Assembly: GCA_963789955.1 (NCBI GenBank)
Contig: CAWBMV010000037.1
Span: forward strand, 64,001-128,000
DNA: 64,000 bases
Reading direction: 5' to 3'
From: an uncultured Candidatus Rokubacteria bacterium
Lineage (GTDB): Bacteria > Methylomirabilota > Methylomirabilia > Rokubacteriales > CSP1-6
Shown here: in pieces, positions 31,140 through 48,552 of the stretch
How positions within the stretch are numbered: position 1 is the first letter of the stretch
Layout: each line of letters opens with the position of its first letter
Program-made: the position numbers and the translations under genes
Notes under the pieces: generated by a model
Database searches by the model: none
Told to the model about the DNA's origin: nothing
The model's input: the letters and a program-made list of their open reading frames with translations, nothing else

Positions 31140-33408
31140 GTGCTCACCATCGAGCACGCGCCCCTGCTCTTCGGACGAGACCCGAGCCCGGCGCTCGTCG
31201 CCTTCGATCTCGCCGACGGCGGGCGCGCGATCCGGCTCTACCGGCGCTCGGGCGAGCGGTACCGTCACCGAGACCGCACCCTTCTCGCCGTTCCTGCTGC
31301 TCGTCGATCGCGATCTGGTGAAGGACGCGCCCGGACTGCTCGCGGTCGATGCGCTCGAGGGCCCCGGCGCGCTGCGCTGGCGGGCGCGCTTCGGGTCGTG
31401 GGGCGAGGCGCTCGGCGCGCGCGACCGCTGTCGCGATCAGTCCGGCCAGATCTGGAACGCGCCCGGCGCGCCGTATCTGTTCCTCGGCGACGCGGTCCAT
31501 CAATATCTCTTGCAGACCGGGCGAACCTCGTTCGGCGGGCTCGTCTTCGCCGACCTCCGCCGGCTGGCGCTCGACATCGAGGTGATGACCGGCGAGGGCC
31601 ACGAGTTTCCGAGCGCGGCACGGCCCGGCGACCGGATCATCGCGGTCGCGCTCGCCGACTCGACCGGCTTCCGTCACGTCGTGCGCGGCGACCGACTCGA
31701 CGAGCGCGCGCTGCTCGAAGAGTGCTCTCGCATCATCCGCGAGCGCGACCCGGACGTGATCGAGGGGCACAACATCTTCCGGTTCGACCTCGAGTATCTC
31801 GAGGCCCGCGCCCGCATGCACCGGGTCGCGCTCGCCTGGGGGCGCGGCGGCGAAACGCTCCGGAGCCGGGTGGCGCGCCTTCAGATCGCGGAGCGCACGA
31901 TCGGCTACCGGCGCTACGAGGTCGCGGGCCGCCACGTCATCGACACGTGGATCCTCGCCCAGCTCCACGACGCGGGCACGCGGGATCTGCCCGGGTTCGG
32001 CCTGAAGGACCTGGCTCGCCACTTCGGCGTCGCCGCCGAAGGCCGGACCTACGTCGAAGGCTCGCAGATCACGCGCGAGTTCCACGAATCGCCCGAGCGG
32101 CTCATGGCCTACGCGGGCGATGACGCGATCGAGACGCTCGCGATCGGGTCGATCCTGGCGCCGCCGTACTTCGCGCAGGCGCAGACGGTACCCTTCGACT
32201 ATCAGTCGTGCACGTTGCGCGGCGCGGCCGCCAAGATCGACGCGCTCGTGCTTCGCGAGTACCTCGCGCGGGGCCAGGCGGTGCCCCTGCCCAGACCGGT
32301 CGGTCCCGTCGGCGGCGGCCACACCGTGATCTGTCAGGAAGGCGTCGCTCGGCCTGTCCTGCACGTGGACGTCACCTCGCTCTACCCCTCGCTGATGCTC
32401 GCCAAGTCCATCGCGCCCGCGTCCGACACGCTCGGCGTCTTCCCGGAGCTTCTGCAGCACCTGCGCGACTTCCGCGTGCGCGCCAAGCGCCTGGCCCGCG
32501 AAGCGGCCGAGCCCGCCGAGCGCGCGCATCTGGGTGCGCTGCAGCAGTCCTTCAAGATCCTGATCAACGCGTTCTACGGCTATCTCGCGTTCAGCGGCGG
32601 GCACTGGAACGACTTCGACGCCGCCGACCGCGTGACCGCCGAGGGGCGGGCCGTGGTCACGGCGATCCTGGCGGGGCTCGAGAGTCTCGGCGCGGTGCCG
32701 GTCGAGGCCGATACCGACGGCGTCTACTTCGTGCCGCCGTCGGGACACTCAGCGGCCGACGACGAAGCGCTGCTCGAACGCCTCACGGCGGGCCTCCCGT
32801 CGGGCATCCAGCTCGAGCTGGACGGCCGGTACGCGGCGATGTTCAGCTACAAGATGAAGACCTACGCGCTGCTCGACGAGCGAGGCCGCCTGAGCCTCAA
32901 GGGCTCGGCGTTCCGCTCGCGCGGCCTCGAGCCCTTCCAGCGGCAGATCATCGGCGAGATCGTCCGCTGCCTCGTGCAGGGACGCCGTGCCGAGGCGCGC
33001 GCGATCATCGACCGCTGGCTCCGCGACTTCGCCGCGCACCGCGTCGAGCTTCGCGCCTTCGCGAGGACCGAGACCCTTCAAGAATCACTCGAGGCATATC
33101 GCGAAAAGGTGCGGATCGGCGCGCGCTCGGCGTCGGCGGCGTACGAGCTCGCCGTGGCCTCGGAGCGCGCGGTGCAGCCCGGCGACCAGATTTCCTATTA
33201 CGTGGCGGGCCGCGGGCCGAACGTCACGGTCAACGAGTACGCGAAGCTGGCCAGCCTCTGGGACGCGGCGCGCCCCGACGAGAACGTCGAGTACTACCAG
33301 ACGAAGGTTCTCGAGATCTGGGAGCGCTTCCGCGCCTTCGCCGACTTCGACGGTCTACGGCCTCCGGCGGCGGAGACGGAGACGAACGCCCAGCTCACAC
33401 TCTTCTAG
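31140..33408 (+). CDS. Family B DNA polymerase with 3'-5' exonuclease, frameshift near 31260
   Basis: Exo I LALDIE, Exo II GHNIFRFDL, Exo III YAGDD; Pol A DVTSLYPS, B KILINAFYG, C DTDG; C-terminal QLTLF. Confidence 0.92.
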
Positions 33409-33416
33409 CGACACGC

Positions 33417-33951
33417 GTGGTCACGATCGTCCACCCGGTCCTGCCGGCGGCAGGCCGGCTCATCTGCGGGCCGCGGCCCTCGCGGCCGTTCCGCGCAGGG
33501 CTTGCGGCGCTGGTCGACGCTCGGTGTCTCGACGATCGCGTGCCTGCTCGACGACCACGAGATGCCGGCGGAGCTCGTCGCGGTGTACGACACGTCGGCG
33601 CTCACAATCCTCCGCCACGCGATTCCCGACTTCGGTCGGCCGGCGGACGCCGGCGGTCTGGCGGTCTTCGTGAACGACCTTCTCGACCGGCTGCGACGTG
33701 GCGAGACGATCTACCTGCACTGCCTCGCCGGGATCGGTCGAACCGGAACCGTGCTCGCGTGTCTGCTGAAGACGGCCGGCGCGGCGGGCGATCCCGTCGA
33801 GCTCGTCAGGACGATCTACGATCCCCGGGCGCTCGAGACCGAGGAGCAACAGCGATTCGCCCGGGCTTTCGTGCCCGGACCCGCTACCAGACCAGGCTCA
33901 GCTGCCGGGGCGACCTCTGATCCGGGCGATCCGCGCGGCGCCGAGAGCTGA
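33417..33951 (+). CDS. Cys-based (dual-specificity/PTP-like) phosphatase, frameshift near 33503
   Basis: HAIPDFGRP loop, P-loop HCLAGIGRTG, ALETEEQ. Confidence 0.85.
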
Positions 33952-34825
33952 GCCCAACTTCGTCCGCCAGGCGCCGCACTCGCTCCTCCGTCTCGCGCAC
34001 GTATTCGGCGGGCGCGTAGGCCGCCCCGCGATAGAGGCGCTCGTACTCGGGCACCAGGCGCGGGAAGTCGACCGCGAGGAAGTCGAGAAAGATCTCGCGC
34101 GTGCCCGGCCGCAGGAAGAGCACGTTGGACTCGGCTCCAATCGCTCCGGCGTCGCGAGCCGCCAGCAGCAACGCGCGCAGGTTCTCCTCGTCATCGGTCA
34201 GGCGCGGCAGGATCGGCATGATGAAGAGCCGCGCCGCGACGCCGGCGTCGGCGAGCGCCCTCATGGCCGTGAAGCGAAGGTCGGGCCGCGGCGCCCGGGG
34301 CTCGAGCCTCCGAGCCAGCGCCGCGTCGATGGTGATGATCGAGAGGTTCACGGTCACGTCCGAGGCAGCCGAGATCTCCCGGAGAAGGCCGGCGTCGCGT
34401 GAGACGAGGGTGGACTTGGTCGTGATCGACAGATGGAGCCCCGGGACGGCACGGGCGGCCTCGAGGACGCGCCGGGTCACCTCGAATCTCCCCTCGGCCG
34501 GCTGATAGGGATCCGTCGCGGTCCCGATCGCCACGCTCTGGCCGCTTCGCCGAGCACGGCGCAGCTGGGCCACCAGCCGGTCGCGATCGGCGTCCTTCAC
34601 ATAGATCGTCCGCTCGAACGCGGTGGGATCGTTCAGCCCGAGGAACTCGTGCGTGTAGCGCGCGAAGCAGTAGCGGCAGGCCATCTCGCAGCCGCGATAC
34701 GGATTCACGGTCCAGCCGAACGGCATCGGCCGGCCGTTGAACTTGTTCAGGAGGTCCTTGGCGCGAAGCTGGTGATATTCGACGCCACGTCGCTCGTCGA
34801 TCGTGAGCCCGAGCCTCTCCGCCAT
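33884..34825 (-). CDS. Rv2578c/SplB-like radical SAM DNA-repair-family protein
   Basis: VNPYRGCEMACRYCFAR, GTATDPYQP, ITTKS, LEPRAP; C-terminal RQLSLVW. Confidence 0.88.
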   Translation of the reverse strand: MAERLGLTIDERRGVEYHQLRAKDLLNKFNGRPMPFGWTVNPYRGCEMACRYCFARYTHEFLGLNDPTAFERTIYVKDADRDRLVAQLRRARRSGQSVAIGTATDPYQPAEGRFEVTRRVLEAARAVPGLHLSITTKSTLVSRDAGLLREISAASDVTVNLSIITIDAALARRLEPRAPRPDLRFTAMRALADAGVAARLFIMPILPRLTDDEENLRALLLAARDAGAIGAESNVLFLRPGTREIFLDFLAVDFPRLVPEYERLYRGAAYAPAEYVRETEERVRRLADEVGLSSRRRADRPDQRSPRQLSLVW

Positions 34826-37282: not shown

Positions 37283-38479
37283 ATGATTTCGGTGCAGGAC
37301 GGCCAAAATCAGATCCTTCGCCAGCTCGCCGAACCGACACCGCCCGAGGTCGTCGCGGTGACCCGCGCGCGCGATCGCGTGCTCGCCGAGGATCTGCCCG
37401 CGCCGTTCGACGTGCCGCCGGCGGACAACTCGGCCGTCGACGGCTACGCCGTGGCGAGCGACGACGTGCCGGCCGCGAACACGCGCGAGCTCGCCGTGAT
37501 CGCCGAGCTGGCGGCCGGCACCGTGTTCGCCGGCACCGTCGCGTCGGGCCAGACCGTGCGCATCATGACCGGCGCGCCGATGCCGCGCGGCGCCGACACC
37601 GTGTACCCGCAAGAGGTGGTCGAGCGGCGCGGCGATCGCCTGAAGGTCGGCTCGATTTCCAAGGGCGCCAACGTCAGGAAGCGCGGCGAGGACGTCCAGG
37701 CGGGCACGATCGCGATCGAGCGCGGCACCGTTCTGCGCCCGCAGGAGCTCGGGCTCATCACCTCGCTCGGCCAGTGGCAGGTGCTCGTGCACCGCCGCCC
37801 GCGCGTGGCCCTTCTCTCGACCGGCGACGAGGTCGTCGAGCCCGGCACGCCGCGCAAGCCCGGCCAGATCTACGACGCCAATCGCTTCACGTTGCGCGGC
37901 TCGGTCGAGCAGTGCGGCGGCGAGGTCATCGATCTCGGCATCGTGGCCGACGCGCGCGACGAGCTTCGGACGCGGCTGCTCGAGGCGGCGGAGATCGGCG
38001 ACATCGTCGTGACATCGGGCGGCGTGTCGGTCGGCGCGCACGACCTGGTGAAGGACGTGCTCGGCGAGATCGGCGCGATCGACTTCTGGCAGGTGGCGAT
38101 GCAGCCCGGACGCCCGCTGGCCTTCGGGCGCATCGGATCGGCGCACTTCTTCGGGCTGCCCGGCAACCCGGTCGCCTCGATGCTGGCGTTCATGCTCTTC
38201 GTCCGGCCGGCGATCTACAAGCTGGCCGGCCGGCGCCGCCTGTTCCCCGAGATGGCCGAGGCGACGGCCGTCGAGACCATGAGCAAGAAGAAGGGCCGCC
38301 GCGAGTTCAAGCGCGGCGTCGTCCACTGGAAGAACGGCCGCTGGGAGGCGCGGACGACGGGACCGCAGGGTTCCGGTATCCTCTCCTCGATGGCGGCGGG
38401 CAATTGCCTCATCGTGCTCGAAGAAGAGCGAGGCGACGTGGCGGTCGGTGAGACCGTTCTCGTCGAGCCGTTCGCATGA
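37283..38479 (+). CDS. moeA: Molybdopterin molybdotransferase MoeA
   Basis: NSAVDGYA, RIMTGAPMP, STGDE, TSGGVSVG, GLPGNP, QGSG. Confidence 0.95.
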   Translation: MISVQDGQNQILRQLAEPTPPEVVAVTRARDRVLAEDLPAPFDVPPADNSAVDGYAVASDDVPAANTRELAVIAELAAGTVFAGTVASGQTVRIMTGAPMPRGADTVYPQEVVERRGDRLKVGSISKGANVRKRGEDVQAGTIAIERGTVLRPQELGLITSLGQWQVLVHRRPRVALLSTGDEVVEPGTPRKPGQIYDANRFTLRGSVEQCGGEVIDLGIVADARDELRTRLLEAAEIGDIVVTSGGVSVGAHDLVKDVLGEIGAIDFWQVAMQPGRPLAFGRIGSAHFFGLPGNPVASMLAFMLFVRPAIYKLAGRRRLFPEMAEATAVETMSKKKGRREFKRGVVHWKNGRWEARTTGPQGSGILSSMAAGNCLIVLEEERGDVAVGETVLVEPFA

Positions 38480-40041
38480 CCAACAAGGTCTCCGTCGACC
38501 TCATCGACACCGTCACGCCGATGGTCGAGACTCGCGTACGCGAGGCCGCGCGCCGACTGCCCCACCTGCGCTATGCCGACATCCGGCTCGAGGTCACCGA
38601 GGCCAAGGGCGCCGGGTCGGAGAACGGCACGCCCAAGTTCTCCGGCGACGACTACGGCTTCTCGCTCGGCGCGCGCGTCCTCGCCGGCGACCGGATGATC
38701 GCGCCGGGCTACGTCGGGCAGACGCTCGGCACCGCCGATCTGGCCGACCTCGACCGGATCGTGCGCGAAGCGCTCGAGCGGGCCTATCGGCGCGCGATGG
38801 TGAACGGCGAGATGAAGGCCGACGCGCGCGAGAAGTACGGGGCCCTCGGCGAGTCGCTCGCCGACACGCGCCTGCACCCGGTCGAGGTGCGCCAGGACAA
38901 GGTCGCGGCCGTCTACCGGGTCGATCCGCGCACGATGTCGCTCACCGAGATGGTGCGCTACGCGACCGACGTCTCCCGCCAGGTCGCGGCCGTCGACACG
39001 GGGGTCAAGTACAACTACGTCGGGACGGTGACCGAGCTCTCGCGCGAGCTCTTCGTGTCGAGCGAGGGCGCGCGGATCGATCAGTCGTTCGCGCTGACCA
39101 TGGGCACCTGCACGGTCGTCACCGTCGACGGCGAGGTGAGCCAGGATCTGTACGACGCGCTCGGGCACCAGCGCGGCTGGGAGATCTTGCTCGACGGCGT
39201 CGACGAGGCGGCGCTGCGCTTTCCGAGCTTCCTCGATTTCGCGCTGAGCCTGGCGCGCGAGGGCGTGGCGCTCGCGGCCGCCCCGGTGCTGCCGACCTCG
39301 GACGGCGACGTGGTCGTGGTCACCGATCCGCACTACAACACGCTCGTGTCCCACGAGATCATCGGCCATCCCGTCGAGCTCGACCGCGCGCTCAAGATGG
39401 AGACGGCGTACGCCGGGCGCTCCTGGCTGCTCGGCGGGCTCACCGAGCATCAGGTCGGCCGCCGGGTCGCCTCGCCGCTCGTGACCGCGTACTCGGATCC
39501 GGCGCTGCCGGGCTTCGGCCACTACAAGTACGATCACGAGGGCACGCCGGCGCGCCGCGTCGTCCACATCGACCGCGGCATCTTCCGTGGCTTCATGAAC
39601 AGCCGGCAGACCGCGGCGATCTTCGGCGGGGAGCCCAACGGCCACTGGAAGGCGACCGACGCCTCGCTGGTGCCGCTGATCCGGATGTCCAACACCGTGT
39701 TCGACGCGGGCGCGCGGCCGGCGGACGACATCGTGAAGGAAGTCGACCACGGCTACTACGTGGCCGGACACCGCACGCCGTCGATCGCCGAGAGCCGCGA
39801 GAACTTCCGCATCTCCGCGCGCGGCGTCTACGAGATCCGCAACGGCGAGCTCGGGCGGCTCTACCGCGACGGCGGCATCGCCGCCGACTCGCGCGACTAC
39901 CTCATGAACGTCGACGCGGTCGGCACCGACTTCCGGCTCTACCCGATCCCCAACTGCGGCAAGGGCCAGCCGATGCAGACCAAGAAGCTCGGCAACGGCG
40001 GCCCGACGATGCGCACGCGCGCGCGGGTGATCGGCGGCTAG
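38476..40041 (+). CDS. TldD-like metalloprotease subunit (divergent paralog)
   Basis: HEIIGH metal motif, DHEGTPA, PLIRMSNT, NCGKGQP. Confidence 0.88.
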   Translation: MTNKVSVDLIDTVTPMVETRVREAARRLPHLRYADIRLEVTEAKGAGSENGTPKFSGDDYGFSLGARVLAGDRMIAPGYVGQTLGTADLADLDRIVREALERAYRRAMVNGEMKADAREKYGALGESLADTRLHPVEVRQDKVAAVYRVDPRTMSLTEMVRYATDVSRQVAAVDTGVKYNYVGTVTELSRELFVSSEGARIDQSFALTMGTCTVVTVDGEVSQDLYDALGHQRGWEILLDGVDEAALRFPSFLDFALSLAREGVALAAAPVLPTSDGDVVVVTDPHYNTLVSHEIIGHPVELDRALKMETAYAGRSWLLGGLTEHQVGRRVASPLVTAYSDPALPGFGHYKYDHEGTPARRVVHIDRGIFRGFMNSRQTAAIFGGEPNGHWKATDASLVPLIRMSNTVFDAGARPADDIVKEVDHGYYVAGHRTPSIAESRENFRISARGVYEIRNGELGRLYRDGGIAADSRDYLMNVDAVGTDFRLYPIPNCGKGQPMQTKKLGNGGPTMRTRARVIGG

Positions 40042-40464
40042 ATGCGCGGCGCGCTGACCGTCGTCGGGGCCGTCGGCCTGCTGTTCGCCACCGCCGCGCC
40101 CGCGGCGCCCCCCGAATATCCCGTCAACTTCATCAAGGTCGACGAGCTCAAGAGCTTCCTCGACCGCGGCACCAAGGCGGACATCATCGACGTCCGGCAC
40201 TGGGAGCAGTTCGTCGAGAGCCACATCAAGGGCGCCCGCTCGATGCCGCTCCGTGTCGTCAACGACCGCGCCCCCGAGATCTCCAAGACAGGGCTGGTAG
40301 TCTTTTACTGAACGTGCCCGCACGCGCTGTCCCGGGGGGCCAGCGACATTCTGTACTAGCTCGGATGGCGGAATCATCGCGTGCTCGAGGAAGGGCTTCC
40401 CGGATGGATGGACAAGGGCTACCCCGTCGAGGGACGGAACCCGACGGCGCCGCCCGGGCACTGA
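40042..40464 (+). CDS. Secreted rhodanese-domain protein with in-frame UGA (probable selenocysteine) and an in-frame TAG
   Basis: Signal peptide; IIDVR, HIKGARSMP, VVFY-UGA-TCP at the catalytic site; rhodanese C-terminus LGWRNHRVLEEGLPGWMDKGYPVE continues in frame to TGA 40462. Confidence 0.78.
40325..40345 (+). promoter_or_regulatory. Candidate bacterial SECIS hairpin
   Basis: CGCTG-T-CCC-GGG-GGG-C-CAGCG; G-rich apical loop begins 22 nt after the UGA. Confidence 0.5.
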
Positions 40465-40471
40465 GCACACG

Positions 40472-42031
40472 ATGAGGACGGTCGACGAGCTGGCACGGGC
40501 AAGCGAGGAAGCGCTGGCGCTGGTCGCGCGCCAGACGGATGTCCGCGAGGCCGAGGTGTTCGTCGCCGCGAACTCCGCGGTGCTGACCCGGCTCAACTAC
40601 ACGTCCCACATTCCCTGCAACGGCGTCGAGGAGCCCAAATCGACCGAGTCCTACGGCCTGGGCATCCAGGCGGTCTTCGAGACGCCGGAGGGCCCGAGGA
40701 TCGGATTCGGCAGCGAGCCGAGCGACCTTTCGCTCGCGGGGGCCGAGCGCGCGCTGGTCAAGGCGCGCCGGGCGGCGGTCGCCGATCCCGAGTTCGTCTC
40801 GCTCCCCGCGCCGACGGGCGCCTCGCGCACACTCGCCGACTACCACGACCCGCGGCTGATGGCGCTCGACGACGCGGGCCTGGTCGAGGCCGGCTGGAAG
40901 GTCACCGGCGGCGCGCTCCGGACGTTCAGCGCCTCGAGCCGGCTGGCCGATCTCGCCCAGGACGACGAGGGGCTCCGGCAGCTCGGCCTCATCCTCGGCG
41001 GCGACGTGACCATCCTGAGAGAGCGGATGGCGATCGCCTCGACCACGATGCCGCGCGCCCAGACCGACGAGACGTCGCTGATCACCGCGTTCGCGACGGC
41101 CATGGTCGAGACGCGCGGCGCCAAGGGCTCGGGGGCGTCGACGGGAACGCGGCTCGATCACTTCACCGACGAGGCCGGCGTGGAGGCGGCGCAGAACGCG
41201 ATCAACGCGATCGGCGGCGAGCGCGTGCCCTCGGGCGCCTACACGGTCGTCTTCGGTCGCCAGCCCGTGGCCGACTTGCTGAACAACATCGTGATCCCCG
41301 CCTGCCACGCGAGCTCGTTCTACTCCTCGAGCACGCCGTTCCTCGGCAAGCTCGGCCGCGCCGTGGCCTCGACGCGCTTGAGCCTCTACGACGACGGCGC
41401 GCGCCCCGGGTTCATGGGCTCGAAGGGCATCACGTGCGAAGGGCTGCCGACCGGACGGACCGATCTGATCAAGAACGGGATGTTCGTCGGGTGCCTCTCG
41501 AACTGGTACGAGACGCAGCGGCTGCTGCGCGATCCGGCCCTCGCCGAGAAGCTCGGCACCAGCGGGCCCGCCGCGGAAGCGGCGCTCGTGCCGCGCAACG
41601 GCTTTCGGTTCGGCTCCGGCGGCGGCCGCCAGTTCGACAGCGCGCCCGGCGTGGCCGCGTCGAACGTCGTGCTCGAGGGCGGCGAGGCGATCGGCATCGA
41701 CGAGCTGATCCGACGGGTCGGCGACGGTCTCTACATCGGCCGCATCTGGTACACGTACCCGATCAACGGCCTGCGCGCGGGTGATTTCACCTGTACCGTC
41801 GTCGCCGATTCCTATATCATCCGCGACGGACGCATCGCGGCGCCGCTCAAGGCCAACGCGATCCGGATCAACGACAACATCGCCACGTTCCTCAACAACG
41901 TCGTCGGGATCACCAAGGATGTGAAGGGCACGATCGTCTGGGCCGCGGACGAGGTCGTGTACGCGCCCGAGGTGGCCGTCACCGGCGTTCATGTCGACGA
42001 AATCGCGGGATTCATGGAGGACCTCGACTGA
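40472..42031 (+). CDS. PmbA/TldE-like partner subunit (divergent, 519 aa)
   Basis: EAEVF, TCEGLPTGRTDLIKNG, ASNVVLEGG, GDFTCTV; no HExxxH motif. Confidence 0.82.
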   Translation: MRTVDELARASEEALALVARQTDVREAEVFVAANSAVLTRLNYTSHIPCNGVEEPKSTESYGLGIQAVFETPEGPRIGFGSEPSDLSLAGAERALVKARRAAVADPEFVSLPAPTGASRTLADYHDPRLMALDDAGLVEAGWKVTGGALRTFSASSRLADLAQDDEGLRQLGLILGGDVTILRERMAIASTTMPRAQTDETSLITAFATAMVETRGAKGSGASTGTRLDHFTDEAGVEAAQNAINAIGGERVPSGAYTVVFGRQPVADLLNNIVIPACHASSFYSSSTPFLGKLGRAVASTRLSLYDDGARPGFMGSKGITCEGLPTGRTDLIKNGMFVGCLSNWYETQRLLRDPALAEKLGTSGPAAEAALVPRNGFRFGSGGGRQFDSAPGVAASNVVLEGGEAIGIDELIRRVGDGLYIGRIWYTYPINGLRAGDFTCTVVADSYIIRDGRIAAPLKANAIRINDNIATFLNNVVGITKDVKGTIVWAADEVVYAPEVAVTGVHVDEIAGFMEDLD

Positions 42032-43901: not shown

Positions 43902-44495
43902 GTGGAGCGACAGCGCTCCCGACCCTACCGGACTATCTCCGGCCGGGACTCGACCTCGTCTTCGTCGGGATCAATCCCGGACTCTACTCGGCTCGTCAGG
44001 GCCACTACTTCGCGCGCTCGACGAATCGCTTCTGGCCGGCATTCACGTCATCGAGGCTGAGCGAGCGCGTATCCGCGACGGGCCTCGGTACCGACGTCCT
44101 CAGACCCGAGCACGACGCGAGCGCTGCTGGCCTTCGGCATCGGCTTCACCGACGTCGTCAAGCGCGACGTCGAGCAACGCGGCGGAGCTCGAGCGCGAGC
44201 GACTTCGAGAAGTGGGCGCCGCGTCTTCTGAGCAAGCTCAGGCGCTTGGCGCCGCGCGTGGCCTGCTTCCACGGCCTCACCGCCTACCGACCGTTCCTCG
44301 CGCGTGGCACTCGGCGATCGACGACCGAGCGCCGGCGCTCGGTCCTCAGCCAGAGGTCGTCGGGACGACGCGGCTCTTCGTGGTGCCGAACCCGAGCCCG
44401 GCCAACGCCCACTTCACGCTTGGCCGACCAGGCCGCCTGGTATGACCGCCTGGCCGAATTCCTCGACGCGCGGGAGAAGCCAGCCGGCCGGCTAG
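43902..44495 (+). CDS. mug: Mismatch-specific uracil-DNA glycosylase, multiple frameshifts
   Basis: [47 protein letters not shown]. Confidence 0.82.
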
Positions 44496-45886
44496 GGCCG
44501 GACCATGTCGGCCGCGCCGCACCCAGCGGTCGTACTGCTCGGCGGTCACGTAGCCGGAGGCGACCGCCGCATCACGGAGCGTGAGCCCTCCGGCGTGCGC
44601 CTTCTTGGCGATCTCCGCCGCGCGGTCGTAGCCGATATGCGGGGCGAGCGCGGTCACGAGCATGAGCGACCGGTCGACGAGCTCCGCGATCCTGGTCCGG
44701 TTCGCCTCGATCCCCTCCACACAGAACTCGCGGAAGCGCGCGCAGGCGTCGGTCAGCAAATCCACCGAGTGCAGGAAGTTGAAGATGATGACCGGCTTGA
44801 AGACGTTCAGCTCGAAGTTGCCCTGCGAGCCGGCGACGGCGATCGCCGTGTCGTTGCCCATCACCTGGACGGCAACCATCGTCACTGCCTCGGCCTGAGT
44901 CGGGTTGACCTTGCCCGGCATGATCGACGAGCCGGGCTCGTTCTCGGGCAGCGAGAGCTCGCCGAGCCCGCTGCGCGGCCCGGAGCCGAGCCAGCGGAGG
45001 TCGTTCGCGATCTTCATGAGCGCGCCGGCCGAGCGTGCGAAGGGCACCGCTCGCCATGACCAGATCGTCGTGGGCGGCGAGCGCGGCGAACTTGTTGGCG
45101 GCCGAGGTGAACGGCAAGCCCGTCAGCTCGGCGAGCTTCGCCGCGACGGCTTCGCCGAACCCGGCCGGCGCGTTGAGGCCGGTGCCGACCGCGGTGCCGC
45201 CGATCGCCAGCGCCAGGAGCCCGGGCAGGATCGCGTCGATCCGCGCGAGGCCGGCGTCGAGCTGGGCGACGTAGCCCGAGAACTCCTGACCGAGCGTGAG
45301 CGGCACCGCGTCTTGCAGATGCGTGCGGCCGATCTTCACGACGTCGTCGAACTCGCGCGCCTTGGCCGCGAGCGCGTCGCGCAGCGCGCGGACGCTCGGC
45401 ACGAGCCGGCGTGTCAGGTCGAGCGCGGCCGCGACGTGCATGGCCGTGGGGAACGTGTCGTTGGACGACTGCGACATGTTCACGTGGTCGTTCGGATGGA
45501 TCGGATCCTTGCTGCCGAGCCGGCCGCCCGCGAGCTCGATCGCCCGATTCGCGATCACCTCGTTCACGTTCATGTTGGTCTGGGTGCCGGAGCCGGTTTG
45601 CCAGACGGACAGCGGGAAGTGGTCGTCGAGCGTGGCCGGCGATCACCTCGTCCGCGGCGCGCACGATCAGCTCGGCGCGGCGGCTGTCGAGAAGACCGAG
45701 CTTCTGGTTGACCAGTGCGGCGGCCTTCTTCAGGAGACCGAGGGCGCGAACGACCGCGATCGGCATCCGGTCGTGGCCGATCGCGAAGTGGTGCAGCGAG
45801 CGCTCGGTCTGAGCGCCCCAGTAGCGGTCGGCGCGGACGTCGATCCGCCCCATGCTGTCGCTCTCGACGCGGGTCTGCGAAGTCAT
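44492..45886 (-). CDS. fumC: Class II fumarate hydratase, about 3 frameshifts
   Basis: [49 protein letters not shown]. Confidence 0.93.
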
Positions 45887-45901: not shown

Positions 45902-46669
45902 TCAAATCAGCCGATACCCGTAGACGAGGCCGAAGGCGATCGAGCCGAGGCCGGCGCAGAGGGCGAGCGCCTGTCGGGCGCGCCGGTAGCGGAGCGCCAT
46001 GGACACGGGATACGCCATGACCGCGGTCAGCACCGTCATGCCGATGATCGTGCCGATCCCGAAGATCAACAGATAGATGACGGCGCTCGCGGTCGAGCGC
46101 AGGGTCGCCAGCACCAGGAGCGAGACCGCCGCGCTGCCGGCCAGACCGTGGACGGCACCGACGACGAGCGCGCGCCCCGCCGGCCAGCCACTGCGCCAGC
46201 CGAGCTTGGCGAGCCAGCGTGAGGGATGAACGTGCGGGTGCTCATGCGTGTGCTCGGCGTCGTGAGCGTGCGGGTGGCTGTGCACCACGCCCACGCCCGC
46301 GCCCCCGCCGTGGTCGTGGTCGGCGACGAGATGCCCGGCGGGCACGGTCTCGAGCCCTCGCACGGCGTCGCGCAGGCGCAGCACGCCCAGCACGATCAGC
46401 ATGGCCGCCACCGCCAGCTCGAGGCTCCCCCCGACCGCCGGCGTGATCGTGAGCTTCAGCCCGATGATGATGGCGCCCACGATCGTCAAGGTCGTCATGT
46501 GGCCGGCGCCCCAGAGCACGCCGATCAGCGCGCCGTCGGCGAAGCGACGCTCGCGCGTGAGGATCGTCGCCACCGCGACCAGGTGGTCCGGATCGGTCGC
46601 GTGCTGCAGACCCAGGAGAAACCCGAGGAGGATCGCCGAGATCGGCGCGGGATCCACGAGCGCGGTCAC
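45902..46669 (-). CDS. NicO/UreH-like high-affinity nickel transport protein with His-rich loop
   Basis: GLQHATDPDH, WGAGH, HSHPHAHDAEHTHEHPHVH, VHGLAGSA. Confidence 0.85.
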   Translation of the reverse strand: MTALVDPAPISAILLGFLLGLQHATDPDHLVAVATILTRERRFADGALIGVLWGAGHMTTLTIVGAIIIGLKLTITPAVGGSLELAVAAMLIVLGVLRLRDAVRGLETVPAGHLVADHDHGGGAGVGVVHSHPHAHDAEHTHEHPHVHPSRWLAKLGWRSGWPAGRALVVGAVHGLAGSAAVSLLVLATLRSTASAVIYLLIFGIGTIIGMTVLTAVMAYPVSMALRYRRARQALALCAGLGSIAFGLVYGYRLI

Positions 46670-47460
46670 TCCGACATCTTCAAGAGGAGCCCGGTGCGCC
46701 GCGCCCGCTGGATCGCGGCGAGGAACGCCCAGTGGGCGAGCGCGGCATAGACGACCGACAGGACCAGCCCGGTCGCGATCGGCGTCTGGAACTCGGACGC
46801 GAATCCGTAGTGCGACCGGTAGGCGTCGAGGAAATACGTGAGCGGGATCGCGCGGGCGATCATCGCGATCGAGTCGGGCAGCACCGAGATCGGATAGTAG
46901 ATCCCCGCGAGCACGAGCACCATGTTGACGCTCGCCCACGCGAACGCCTCGGCCCGGTTGCCGAAGAGCGTGATCAACGCGCACACGGCGACGCCGACCA
47001 CCCAGGCGGTGAGAAAGCAGCCCAGCAGGAACGTGCCGAGCGCGAGCCAGCCGGGCTGGAGCACGTGGAAGCCGAACGCCCACCGGCCGAGCGCCGCCAG
47101 CAGGACGAACACGGCCAGGCTGCGCACCATGCCGACGATCCAGGATCCGAGCGTCAGGTGGCGAATGCCGATCGGCGCCAGGAACTGGTGCTTGAGCGAC
47201 TTCGACCAGACGTCGAGCAGGACCGCATAGGCGACCTCGAGCTGGCAGACGTTGACGATCGACAGCGCGATCGTGCCGACCAGCACGAACGACGCCTGCG
47301 CGTCCGTCAGCTCGAGGAACCGCGACATCAGGCCGATCGAGAGCACGCCCACGATCGGCCAGAAGAGCAGCTCGAAGAAGAAGAACACGTTGCGGGCGCC
47401 CATCAGGGCGTTCCGGAGCGTCACCGCCCAGACGGCGAGCAGCTCATTTCGCCAGCTCAA
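46666..47460 (-). CDS. ABC-2 type transporter permease
   Basis: Six TM segments, ELLFWP, GIYYPISVLP, IPLTY. Confidence 0.85.
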   Translation of the reverse strand: MSWRNELLAVWAVTLRNALMGARNVFFFFELLFWPIVGVLSIGLMSRFLELTDAQASFVLVGTIALSIVNVCQLEVAYAVLLDVWSKSLKHQFLAPIGIRHLTLGSWIVGMVRSLAVFVLLAALGRWAFGFHVLQPGWLALGTFLLGCFLTAWVVGVAVCALITLFGNRAEAFAWASVNMVLVLAGIYYPISVLPDSIAMIARAIPLTYFLDAYRSHYGFASEFQTPIATGLVLSVVYAALAHWAFLAAIQRARRTGLLLKMSE

Positions 47461-48381
47461 CGAAGACCTCCTCGAGCTCCGGCTCGCGGACCTGCACGTT
47501 CCTGATGACGACGCCCTCGGTGTGGAGCGCGCGCAGCAACTCCGGCAGCCGCTTCTCGGCCTCGTCCACGGTGCACTCGACCCAGCCGTCGACCTCGACG
47601 CACCGGAGAACACCCGGAGCTCTCGGCCAGCCACGGCACGCGCGGCGGATCGAGCTTGAGCGCGATGACCTCGCCGAGGCGGATCTGGCGCTTCAGCTCG
47701 CCCGAGGTGCCGCGCGCCAGGATGCGCCCGGCCTTGATGAAGGCGATCTCGTCGCAGAGCTCGTCGGCCTCGCGCATGTAGTGCGTCGTCAGCACGATCG
47801 TGATCCCCTGCTCGCGGCGGAGCCGCGCGATGTGGGCGCGCACGCGCACGGCGACGTCGGGATCGAGACCGAGCGTGGGCTCGTCGAGGAAGAGGAGCTC
47901 CGGCTCGTTGACCAGCGCCTTGGCGAGCGCGACGCGCTGCTTGAGCCCGGTCGACAGGTCCGAATACGGGACGCGGCGATACGGCGTCGAGCTCACACAG
48001 CTCGATCAGCGAGTCGACACGCTGGCGCAGGCGGCGACCGCTCAGGCCGTACAGGCGGCCGTAGAACGCGACGATCTCGCCGACCCGCAGGCTCCACAGG
48101 AACGACGGCCGCCCGCTCACCATGTTGAGCCGCCGGCGCAAGGCACCCGCCTCGCGAACGACGTCGTGCCCGAGGATCGTCACGCGGCCGCGATCGGGCG
48201 TCAGCAAGGTGGCGAGAATCGACAGCAAGGTGGTCTTGCCCGCGCCGTTGGGACCGAGGACGCCGACGATCGCGCCGCGCGCCACCGTCAGCGAAACTCC
48301 GCGCAACGCCTCGGTCGCGCGGCGGCGCGGCCATCCGGAGCGGAACGTCTTCTCTACGTCTTGCGCGTCGATCGCGAGCAT
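47444..48381 (-). CDS. ABC transporter ATP-binding protein, frameshifted
   Basis: GPNGAGKTT, LSTGLKQR, LFLDEPT, LTTHYM, EPELEEVF. Confidence 0.88.
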
Positions 48382-48552
48382 ACTCAGTGATGATACCATC
48401 CACGTCATGGCCGGCTCCGACGAGTGGCGCTGCGCCGCCGCGACGGTGACGCCCGGCCACAGCGCAACGTTCCGTCGAGCGCGCCGGCGCGCTCAACGCA
48501 TTCGTCGTGAATCACGACGGTCAGTACGCGCGTACGTGAACCGCGTCCGGCG

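Follow-up and report, generated by a model that had tools for sequence, protein, structure and literature searches.

Does the UGA codon in the middle of a small Rokubacteria rhodanese gene end the protein, or is it read as selenocysteine (Sec), and what would the full-length product then do? The gene lies on the plus strand at 40042–40464 of the window, the whole 64,000-nucleotide stretch of DNA that was analysed, and would encode a single-domain rhodanese-fold selenoprotein of 140 codons if both of its internal stops are read through. An initial annotation had observed that an 89-aa reading frame, opening at ATG 40042, stops at TGA 40309–40311 (codon 90, within VVFY*TCPH), exactly where rhodaneses carry their catalytic Cys. 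Alignment agrees, placing U90 at the YC catalytic position of solved rhodaneses, and the C-terminal half of the domain can be followed in frame as far as TGA 40462–40464. Masking both stops gives a product of 140 residues that matches the Pfam Rhodanese model (PF00581) at 43.1 bits against a cut-off of 22.2 (E 6e-11, residues 33–124).

The UGA codon is conserved across a Rokubacteria family

A collection scan returned 228 relatives, of which we used the best 80; nearly all are labelled Rokubacteria or Methylomirabilota. We distinguish the window's own type (family f1, 73 loci) from a second family (f4, seven loci). Among these best 80 orthologous loci, codon 90 is TGA in 78 and TGC (Cys) in the other two, the UGA-or-Cys pattern for which the initial annotation had proposed to look. 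The residues at +2, +3 and +4 from U90 (Cys92-Pro93-His94, 40315–40323) are Cys, Pro and His in every one of the best 80. The half of the protein downstream of the UGA, whose lack of conservation would have spoken against Sec, is conserved in all orthologues. When 61 related genomes were searched, codon 90 was TGA and codon 106 encoded an amino acid in all 29 best loci outside this genome. Across the phylum, 153 of 251 genomes gave a match at E<=1e-20, a count that includes paralogues; among the best 121 rows (E<1e-38), 119 had one TGA and two had none (a hand count that overlaps the 80). Judged by these alignments, a family of rhodanese-fold proteins with a signal-peptide-like N-terminus and a U-x-C-P-H motif is widespread in Rokubacteria.

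The Cys homologues (P0007 and P0046) align at the UGA position. In a tree of 76 rows, built from a chosen subset of loci, the two Cys forms make a clade (support 100/99) nested within the Sec clade of family f4. Because they are nested in this way and the genomes of both retain selA and selB, the two TGC copies look like gene-specific Sec-to-Cys reversions. The Cys forms use AGC, and the Sec forms there use the rarer AGT.

The genome itself carries the four genes that the initial annotation had named for Sec synthesis and insertion: selC (tRNA-SeC, UCA) at C1:731972, selA and selB beside it, and selD on C6. The selD gene (C6:164410) has an in-frame TGA of its own (CAG*), with a strong hairpin and a loop G at +25. 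The same genome also encodes three C-x-U-P rhodanese domains, at C30:22165(-) (YCS*PDE), C21:8150(-) (FCT*PNE) and C12:488188(+) (YCT*PNE); each has a hairpin with a loop G at the same +26 from the UGA as in the family studied here, and all score below the cut-off of the NF041203 model discussed below. A CTS version of the CxU rhodanese, lacking Sec, lies at C20:128474. A more remote Sec form from a different order of the class (L189:3075–3500, genome G098) has the loop U-A-C-P-T and a C-terminal PPH. Public protein sets represent the family in part as fragments, with seven of the best 150 matches ending at residue 89, that is, cut at the UGA. Taken with the hairpin described next, we consider it almost certain that the UGA of this Rokubacteria rhodanese family, the one at 40309–40311 included, encodes selenocysteine.

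A conserved hairpin follows the UGA

A predicted bacterial SECIS (bSECIS) hairpin lies at 40325–40345. The initial annotation had it begin 22 nt after the UGA; that distance is correct for the apical loop (GGG, 40334–40336), but the stem begins at 40325, only 13 nt downstream of the UGA. Published bSECIS constraints are a loop of 3–9 nt, a G in its first two positions, a distance of 16–37 nt from the UGA and a minimum free energy of <= -7.5 (PMC13188914), and the hairpin lies within all four, with its 3-nt GGG loop, 22-nt distance and -10.7 kcal/mol. Its stability does not exceed that of shuffled sequences (z +0.64 to +1.23), and it stands out from chance only through its conservation.

That conservation is pronounced. 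Where 42 Sec genes share a residue, the identity of its codon is 0.75–1.0 at codons +5 to +12, the hairpin region, against 0.2–0.76, mostly under 0.6, at later four-fold sites, and synonymous sites are frozen at codons +6 to +11. The core pairs are kept in 33–34 of 34 distinct sequences, and three of them are invariant; conservation is lower in the outer stem. One core pair has changed from C-G to A-U in eight of the 34 sequences, a single inherited event that goes with a replacement of Arg-Gly by Ser-Leu, and one core pair is open in 16 of the 34, including this copy. The G at +26 from the UGA is invariant among the Sec genes compared. By way of background, 1555 of 157582 TGA triplets in the genome (~1%) satisfy the same four pairs plus the G. 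The comparison shows the predicted hairpin to be under purifying selection, and the Sec-plus-SECIS-like-hairpin arrangement first proposed for this one copy is thereby borne out for the gene family. The Cys forms fold at only -4.1 kcal/mol (loop GCC), compared with a median of -11.8 for 84 TGA rows, but they still have four of the five core pairs, so decay of the hairpin has been partial.

A probably exported protein with a rhodanese fold

For structural work we turned to the orthologue of genome G004, which is intact and 93% identical to the window copy. The AlphaFold2 model of its domain, computed from a 35-sequence alignment with U treated as C, has a pLDDT of 94.9 and superimposes on single-domain rhodaneses, with TM scores of 0.87 for BH2092 (3nhv) and 0.85–0.88 for Alr3790 (3ilm). 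Together with PspE/GlpE, these share the fold (TM 0.85–0.88) at 26–32% identity. In the ESM Atlas only generic rhodanese clusters were found.

The N-terminus has the make-up of a Sec-type signal peptide (40042–40104), with MR, a hydrophobic core and A-P-A, from which we infer the cleavage site. On a heuristic measure, Kyte-Doolittle hydropathy peaks at 2.46 over residues 5–15, and a hydrophobic N-terminal stretch was found by the same kind of heuristic in all of the best 80 orthologues; on this measure the signal-peptide-like look noted earlier for this copy extends to the family. Export through the Sec pathway is predicted on these grounds and is likely.

Relation to known rhodanese selenoproteins

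The closest family match is NF041203 (rhodanese_LYCAU, 'rhodanese-related (seleno)protein'; E 2e-13, residues 25–131), which likewise has a single rhodanese domain and a two-chalcogen C/U-x-C/U loop. Scores against this model, 50.1 bits for the intact orthologue and 40.6 for the window copy, fall below its cut-off of 115. The motifs also differ: NF041203 has CxU, with Sec third, whereas the loci studied here have UxC (78 of the best 80) or CxC (two of the best 80), which places Sec first, where the catalytic residue sits. The present family also differs from NF041203 in its signal-peptide-like N-terminus and in the invariant Pro-His that follows the motif.

NF041203 corresponds to form 3 in a table of rhodanese selenoproteins (PMC13188914), which catalogues five forms (UxxS, UxxG, CxU, UxxG and UxxxxU) and, within that table, no UxC. 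The parts consulted of a 2022 review give three forms (PMC9312934), those of PMC5029168 contain nothing further on such forms, and the main text of deep-Sep does not mention 'rhodanese' (PMC12013277). Forms 1, 2 and 4 (UxxS, UxxG) and form 5 (TsoB, NF045694, UxxxxU) also carry Sec in a rhodanese domain but, as tabulated, are without the second Cys at +2 that marks UxC; the TsoB model scores 26.5 here against a cut-off of 805. A UxU rhodanese-related sulfurtransferase was reported in 2007 from symbionts of Olavius algarvensis (PMC1976440), which gives a precedent for Sec at this site. Compared by its description in that source, the UxU form likewise has Sec at the first motif position, but it is deltaproteobacterial and its second residue is Sec, whereas here the hosts are Rokubacteria and the second residue is Cys.

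On this comparison, UxC is apparently an uncatalogued variant of the known rhodanese selenoproteins. In the titles and opening lines of abstracts of literature on rhodaneses with copper genes or selenoproteins, and on Sec in Rokubacteria and Methylomirabilota, we found no description of the family. Deng et al. (2026) are said to have found 63 selenoproteins in a Methylomirabilota genome, and these may already include this gene.

A candidate periplasmic redox centre

The best explanation overall, to which we assign a probability of roughly 0.6, is that the gene encodes an exported Sec-containing rhodanese-fold protein whose U-x-C-P-H motif forms a periplasmic selenol/thiol redox centre, with a private TAG in this copy. 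SelB would read the hairpin and insert Sec at the UGA, and the predicted signal peptide would direct the protein through the Sec translocon. The selenolate, at a helix N-terminus, could then attack an oxidised sulfur (a disulfide, a persulfide or polysulfide, or an oxidised metal-binding thiol), after which Cys92 would resolve the adduct as a selenenylsulfide, to be re-reduced by a periplasmic partner. The second Cys is invariant, and across UxC, CxU and UxU forms Sec is found in place of each of the two Cys of such a loop, which fits two-residue redox chemistry. Taken separately from the rest, the selenol/thiol redox mechanism is tentative, and we would put it at slightly under an even chance. 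The neighbourhoods of the closest paralogues suggest envelope copper or oxidative stress as the setting.

Those neighbourhoods also support a different reading, in which the protein acts mainly as a chaperone or buffer for Cu(I) in the periplasm, perhaps one that evolved from the CxC rhodanese-like gene of CopC-CopD-CusF operons, with the selenolate, thiolate and histidines (Sec90, Cys92, His94 and a tail His) binding or reducing copper. The putative ligands are well kept: Cys and His in all of the best 80 orthologues, U in 78 of them and a C-terminal P-x-H in 54. Within the phylum, the closest paralogues form a group of predicted exported CxC rhodanese-like proteins (support 99/98), which adjoin CopD-cytochrome c and CusF in nine of 14 loci. 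In family f4, BufB lies over cut-off within 5 kb of the Sec gene in seven of seven loci, and bufferins are described, in the portion of PMC11626156 consulted, as copper-binding periplasmic peptides. Longer f4 stretches, all from one genus and chosen to span to the rhodanese paralogue, contain CopD-cytochrome c and CusF in 10 of 10 cases, and the distant Sec form of L189 lies ~2.5 kb from an SCO1/SenC gene.

Against copper binding, no copper gene (Cop, bufferin or SCO) was found within 5 kb in any of the 73 f1 loci, the window's own type, and the Cop cluster of this genome itself (C6) contained no rhodanese match. The His is missing from the CxC paralogues. In L041 (1394–1690) and similar f4 loci, the rhodanese-like gene that ends the CopD-cytochrome c/CusF operon has lost both Cys (AGT or AAS loop) and is conserved nevertheless, so that operon does not need the CxC. 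Since the Cop-operon CxC clade is only weakly placed relative to the Sec clades (83/77), we claim no order of origin. We regard a copper chaperone as an unlikely alternative to the selenol/thiol redox protein. Between the f4 rhodanese-like gene and the Sec gene lie a bufferin cluster (DUF2282, BufB, DUF2063, DoxX) and a HAMP-adenylate-cyclase gene.

The initial annotation had pointed to sulfur or selenium transfer by rhodaneses. Another reading is that the protein is a classical thiosulfate or selenosulfate transferase like PspE or GlpE that has moved to Sec. PspE is a periplasmic single-domain rhodanese, the DVR, HI-GA and GW motifs of rhodaneses are present along with the fold, and there are weak matches to the PspE and GlpE models; these scores are, however, far under cut-off (33.9 against 102 for PspE). 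The loop is what makes transfer doubtful. It reads U-T-C-P-H-A-L, with A (73) or H (7) at +5 and L (76) or M (4) at +6 in the best 80 of 228. Active rhodanese loops are given as Cx4R/T or Cx5R in the sections consulted of PMC10135228 and PMC8533005. In the best 80, neither the sulfurtransferase loop Cx4R/T(S) nor the Cx5R loop of Cdc25/ACR2-type phosphatases or arsenate reductases was matched, and the terminal R/T/S of the PspE/GlpE-type thiosulfate sulfurtransferases is missing. Compared with 6mxv and 3tp9, the loop region also contains one extra residue. A classical transferase is accordingly improbable, and somewhat more so than a copper chaperone.

Gene order offers a further possibility, that the protein works specifically with the TldD/PmbA protease or with MoeA, in the latter case delivering sulfur for the molybdenum cofactor. 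Upstream on the same strand are moeA (37283–38479; Pfam MoeA_N/MoCF_biosynth/MoeA_C), a conserved neighbour, and a TldD-like protease gene (38476–40041) whose TAG stop abuts the rhodanese ATG, and a PmbA/TldE-like gene follows directly downstream (40472–42031). The usual order in family f1 is moeA-tldD-[Sec gene]-pmbA-transketolase; of the best 80 orthologous loci, 70 have tldD next to the Sec gene and 68 have moeA close by. TldD/PmbA and MoeA are cytoplasmic, whereas the Sec protein has a signal-peptide-like N-terminus. Moreover, tldD and pmbA are missing beside the Sec gene in five loci (L093, L113, L114, L203 and L204) and in all seven f4 loci, which indicates co-location rather than partnership and leaves this reading with very little probability.

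In L113 and L114 (2280–4900 region), which are without pmbA, ~2.5 kb of other DNA occupies the usual tldD place between moeA and the Sec gene. Genome G032 carries the Sec gene twice, as divergent copies (L017 and L060) of which one lies next to tldD and the other immediately follows moeA; this double copy may be binning contamination. Farther upstream in the window (31318–34825) are three consecutive ORFs that, judged by motifs, may resemble a family-B polymerase (696 aa), a small phosphatase and a radical-SAM protein.

A second stop codon is private to this genome

The initial annotation had the fold continuing in frame to 40464. In this copy the frame is not open between the UGA and the natural stop: a TAG at codon 106 (40357–40359, ...SDILY*LGWRN...) intervenes before the HRVLEEGLPGW segment. 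The codon is sense in all 29 loci of the 61-genome search and in all of the best 80 orthologues, and among the best 121 rows of the phylum search this genome alone carries the TAG. That the UGA is a true stop, or that TAG and TGA are both recoded through pyrrolysine or another code, would account for two in-frame stops in one copy but has a negligible chance of being right, given that the downstream half is conserved in all orthologues, the TAG is unique to this genome, TAG terminates the adjacent tldD and tRNA-Trp has CCA; pyrrolysine was rejected on finding no PylS over cut-off in this genome (87% complete; best 28.7 bits against 178).

We compared codon 106 with soil runs X1, X2, X7 and X15, of 24 listed. 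Soil contigs with 98–99% identity read TCG. The X1 contig (19 differences in 1015 bases) and the X15 contig (18 differences in 906 bases) both keep the TGA and have TCG at codon 106, as does X2 at that codon; the X15 contig comes from an RNA library and covers the gene, which is no proof of transcription. X7 reads mostly CAG among the rows listed, with ~19 of a depth of 61 unassigned at 40357–40358, where a contig ends; that share could include TAG, so these runs neither establish nor disprove its occurrence in nature. The TAG is one base away from both TCG and CAG.

The assembly is rich in frameshifts: 26 of 86 genes are affected, against 2 of 88 when the comparison is reversed, and a larger survey found 62 affected genes among 238. 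With a quarter to a third of its genes frameshifted relative to relatives, odd reading frames of this genome call for caution; in the window, genes at 44346–45886 (fumarase-like) and 46666–48408 (ABC-transporter-like) appear split across frames. Internal stops in five of the 86 genes of the first control were set aside as artefacts (mis-called N-terminal extensions, shadow frames or stops beside a frameshift) on inspection of four of them plus two from the reverse set. In the larger control of 238 genes, four stops were well flanked, but on inspection each was judged to lie in an upstream or antisense frame, which leaves no clean nonsense codon. Its absence from 238 genes, despite 62 with frameshifts, weakens the case for an assembly error. 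CTAG is not in excess (3.13 against 2.98 per 10 kb), so a systematic motif error does not explain the TAG; changes to and from CTAG relative to G004 are about balanced. A substitution error is plausible, and we give about even odds to a consensus error of the assembly and a recent nonsense mutation.

As written, this genome's copy would not yield the full protein. If the TAG is real, the last strand and the GW motif would be lost and the protein presumably inactivated. The intact representative of the family is the G004 copy (L002); the copy in this genome is a poor one as assembled.

Significance

UxC would add a form to the rhodanese selenoproteins, one that is common in an abundant lineage of aerobic soils and is halved in public protein sets. 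Together with CxU, UxU and the apparent natural Sec-to-Cys revertants, it would provide, within one loop, a test set for what Sec contributes at each position. The same set may be useful for studying the use of selenium in the cell envelope.
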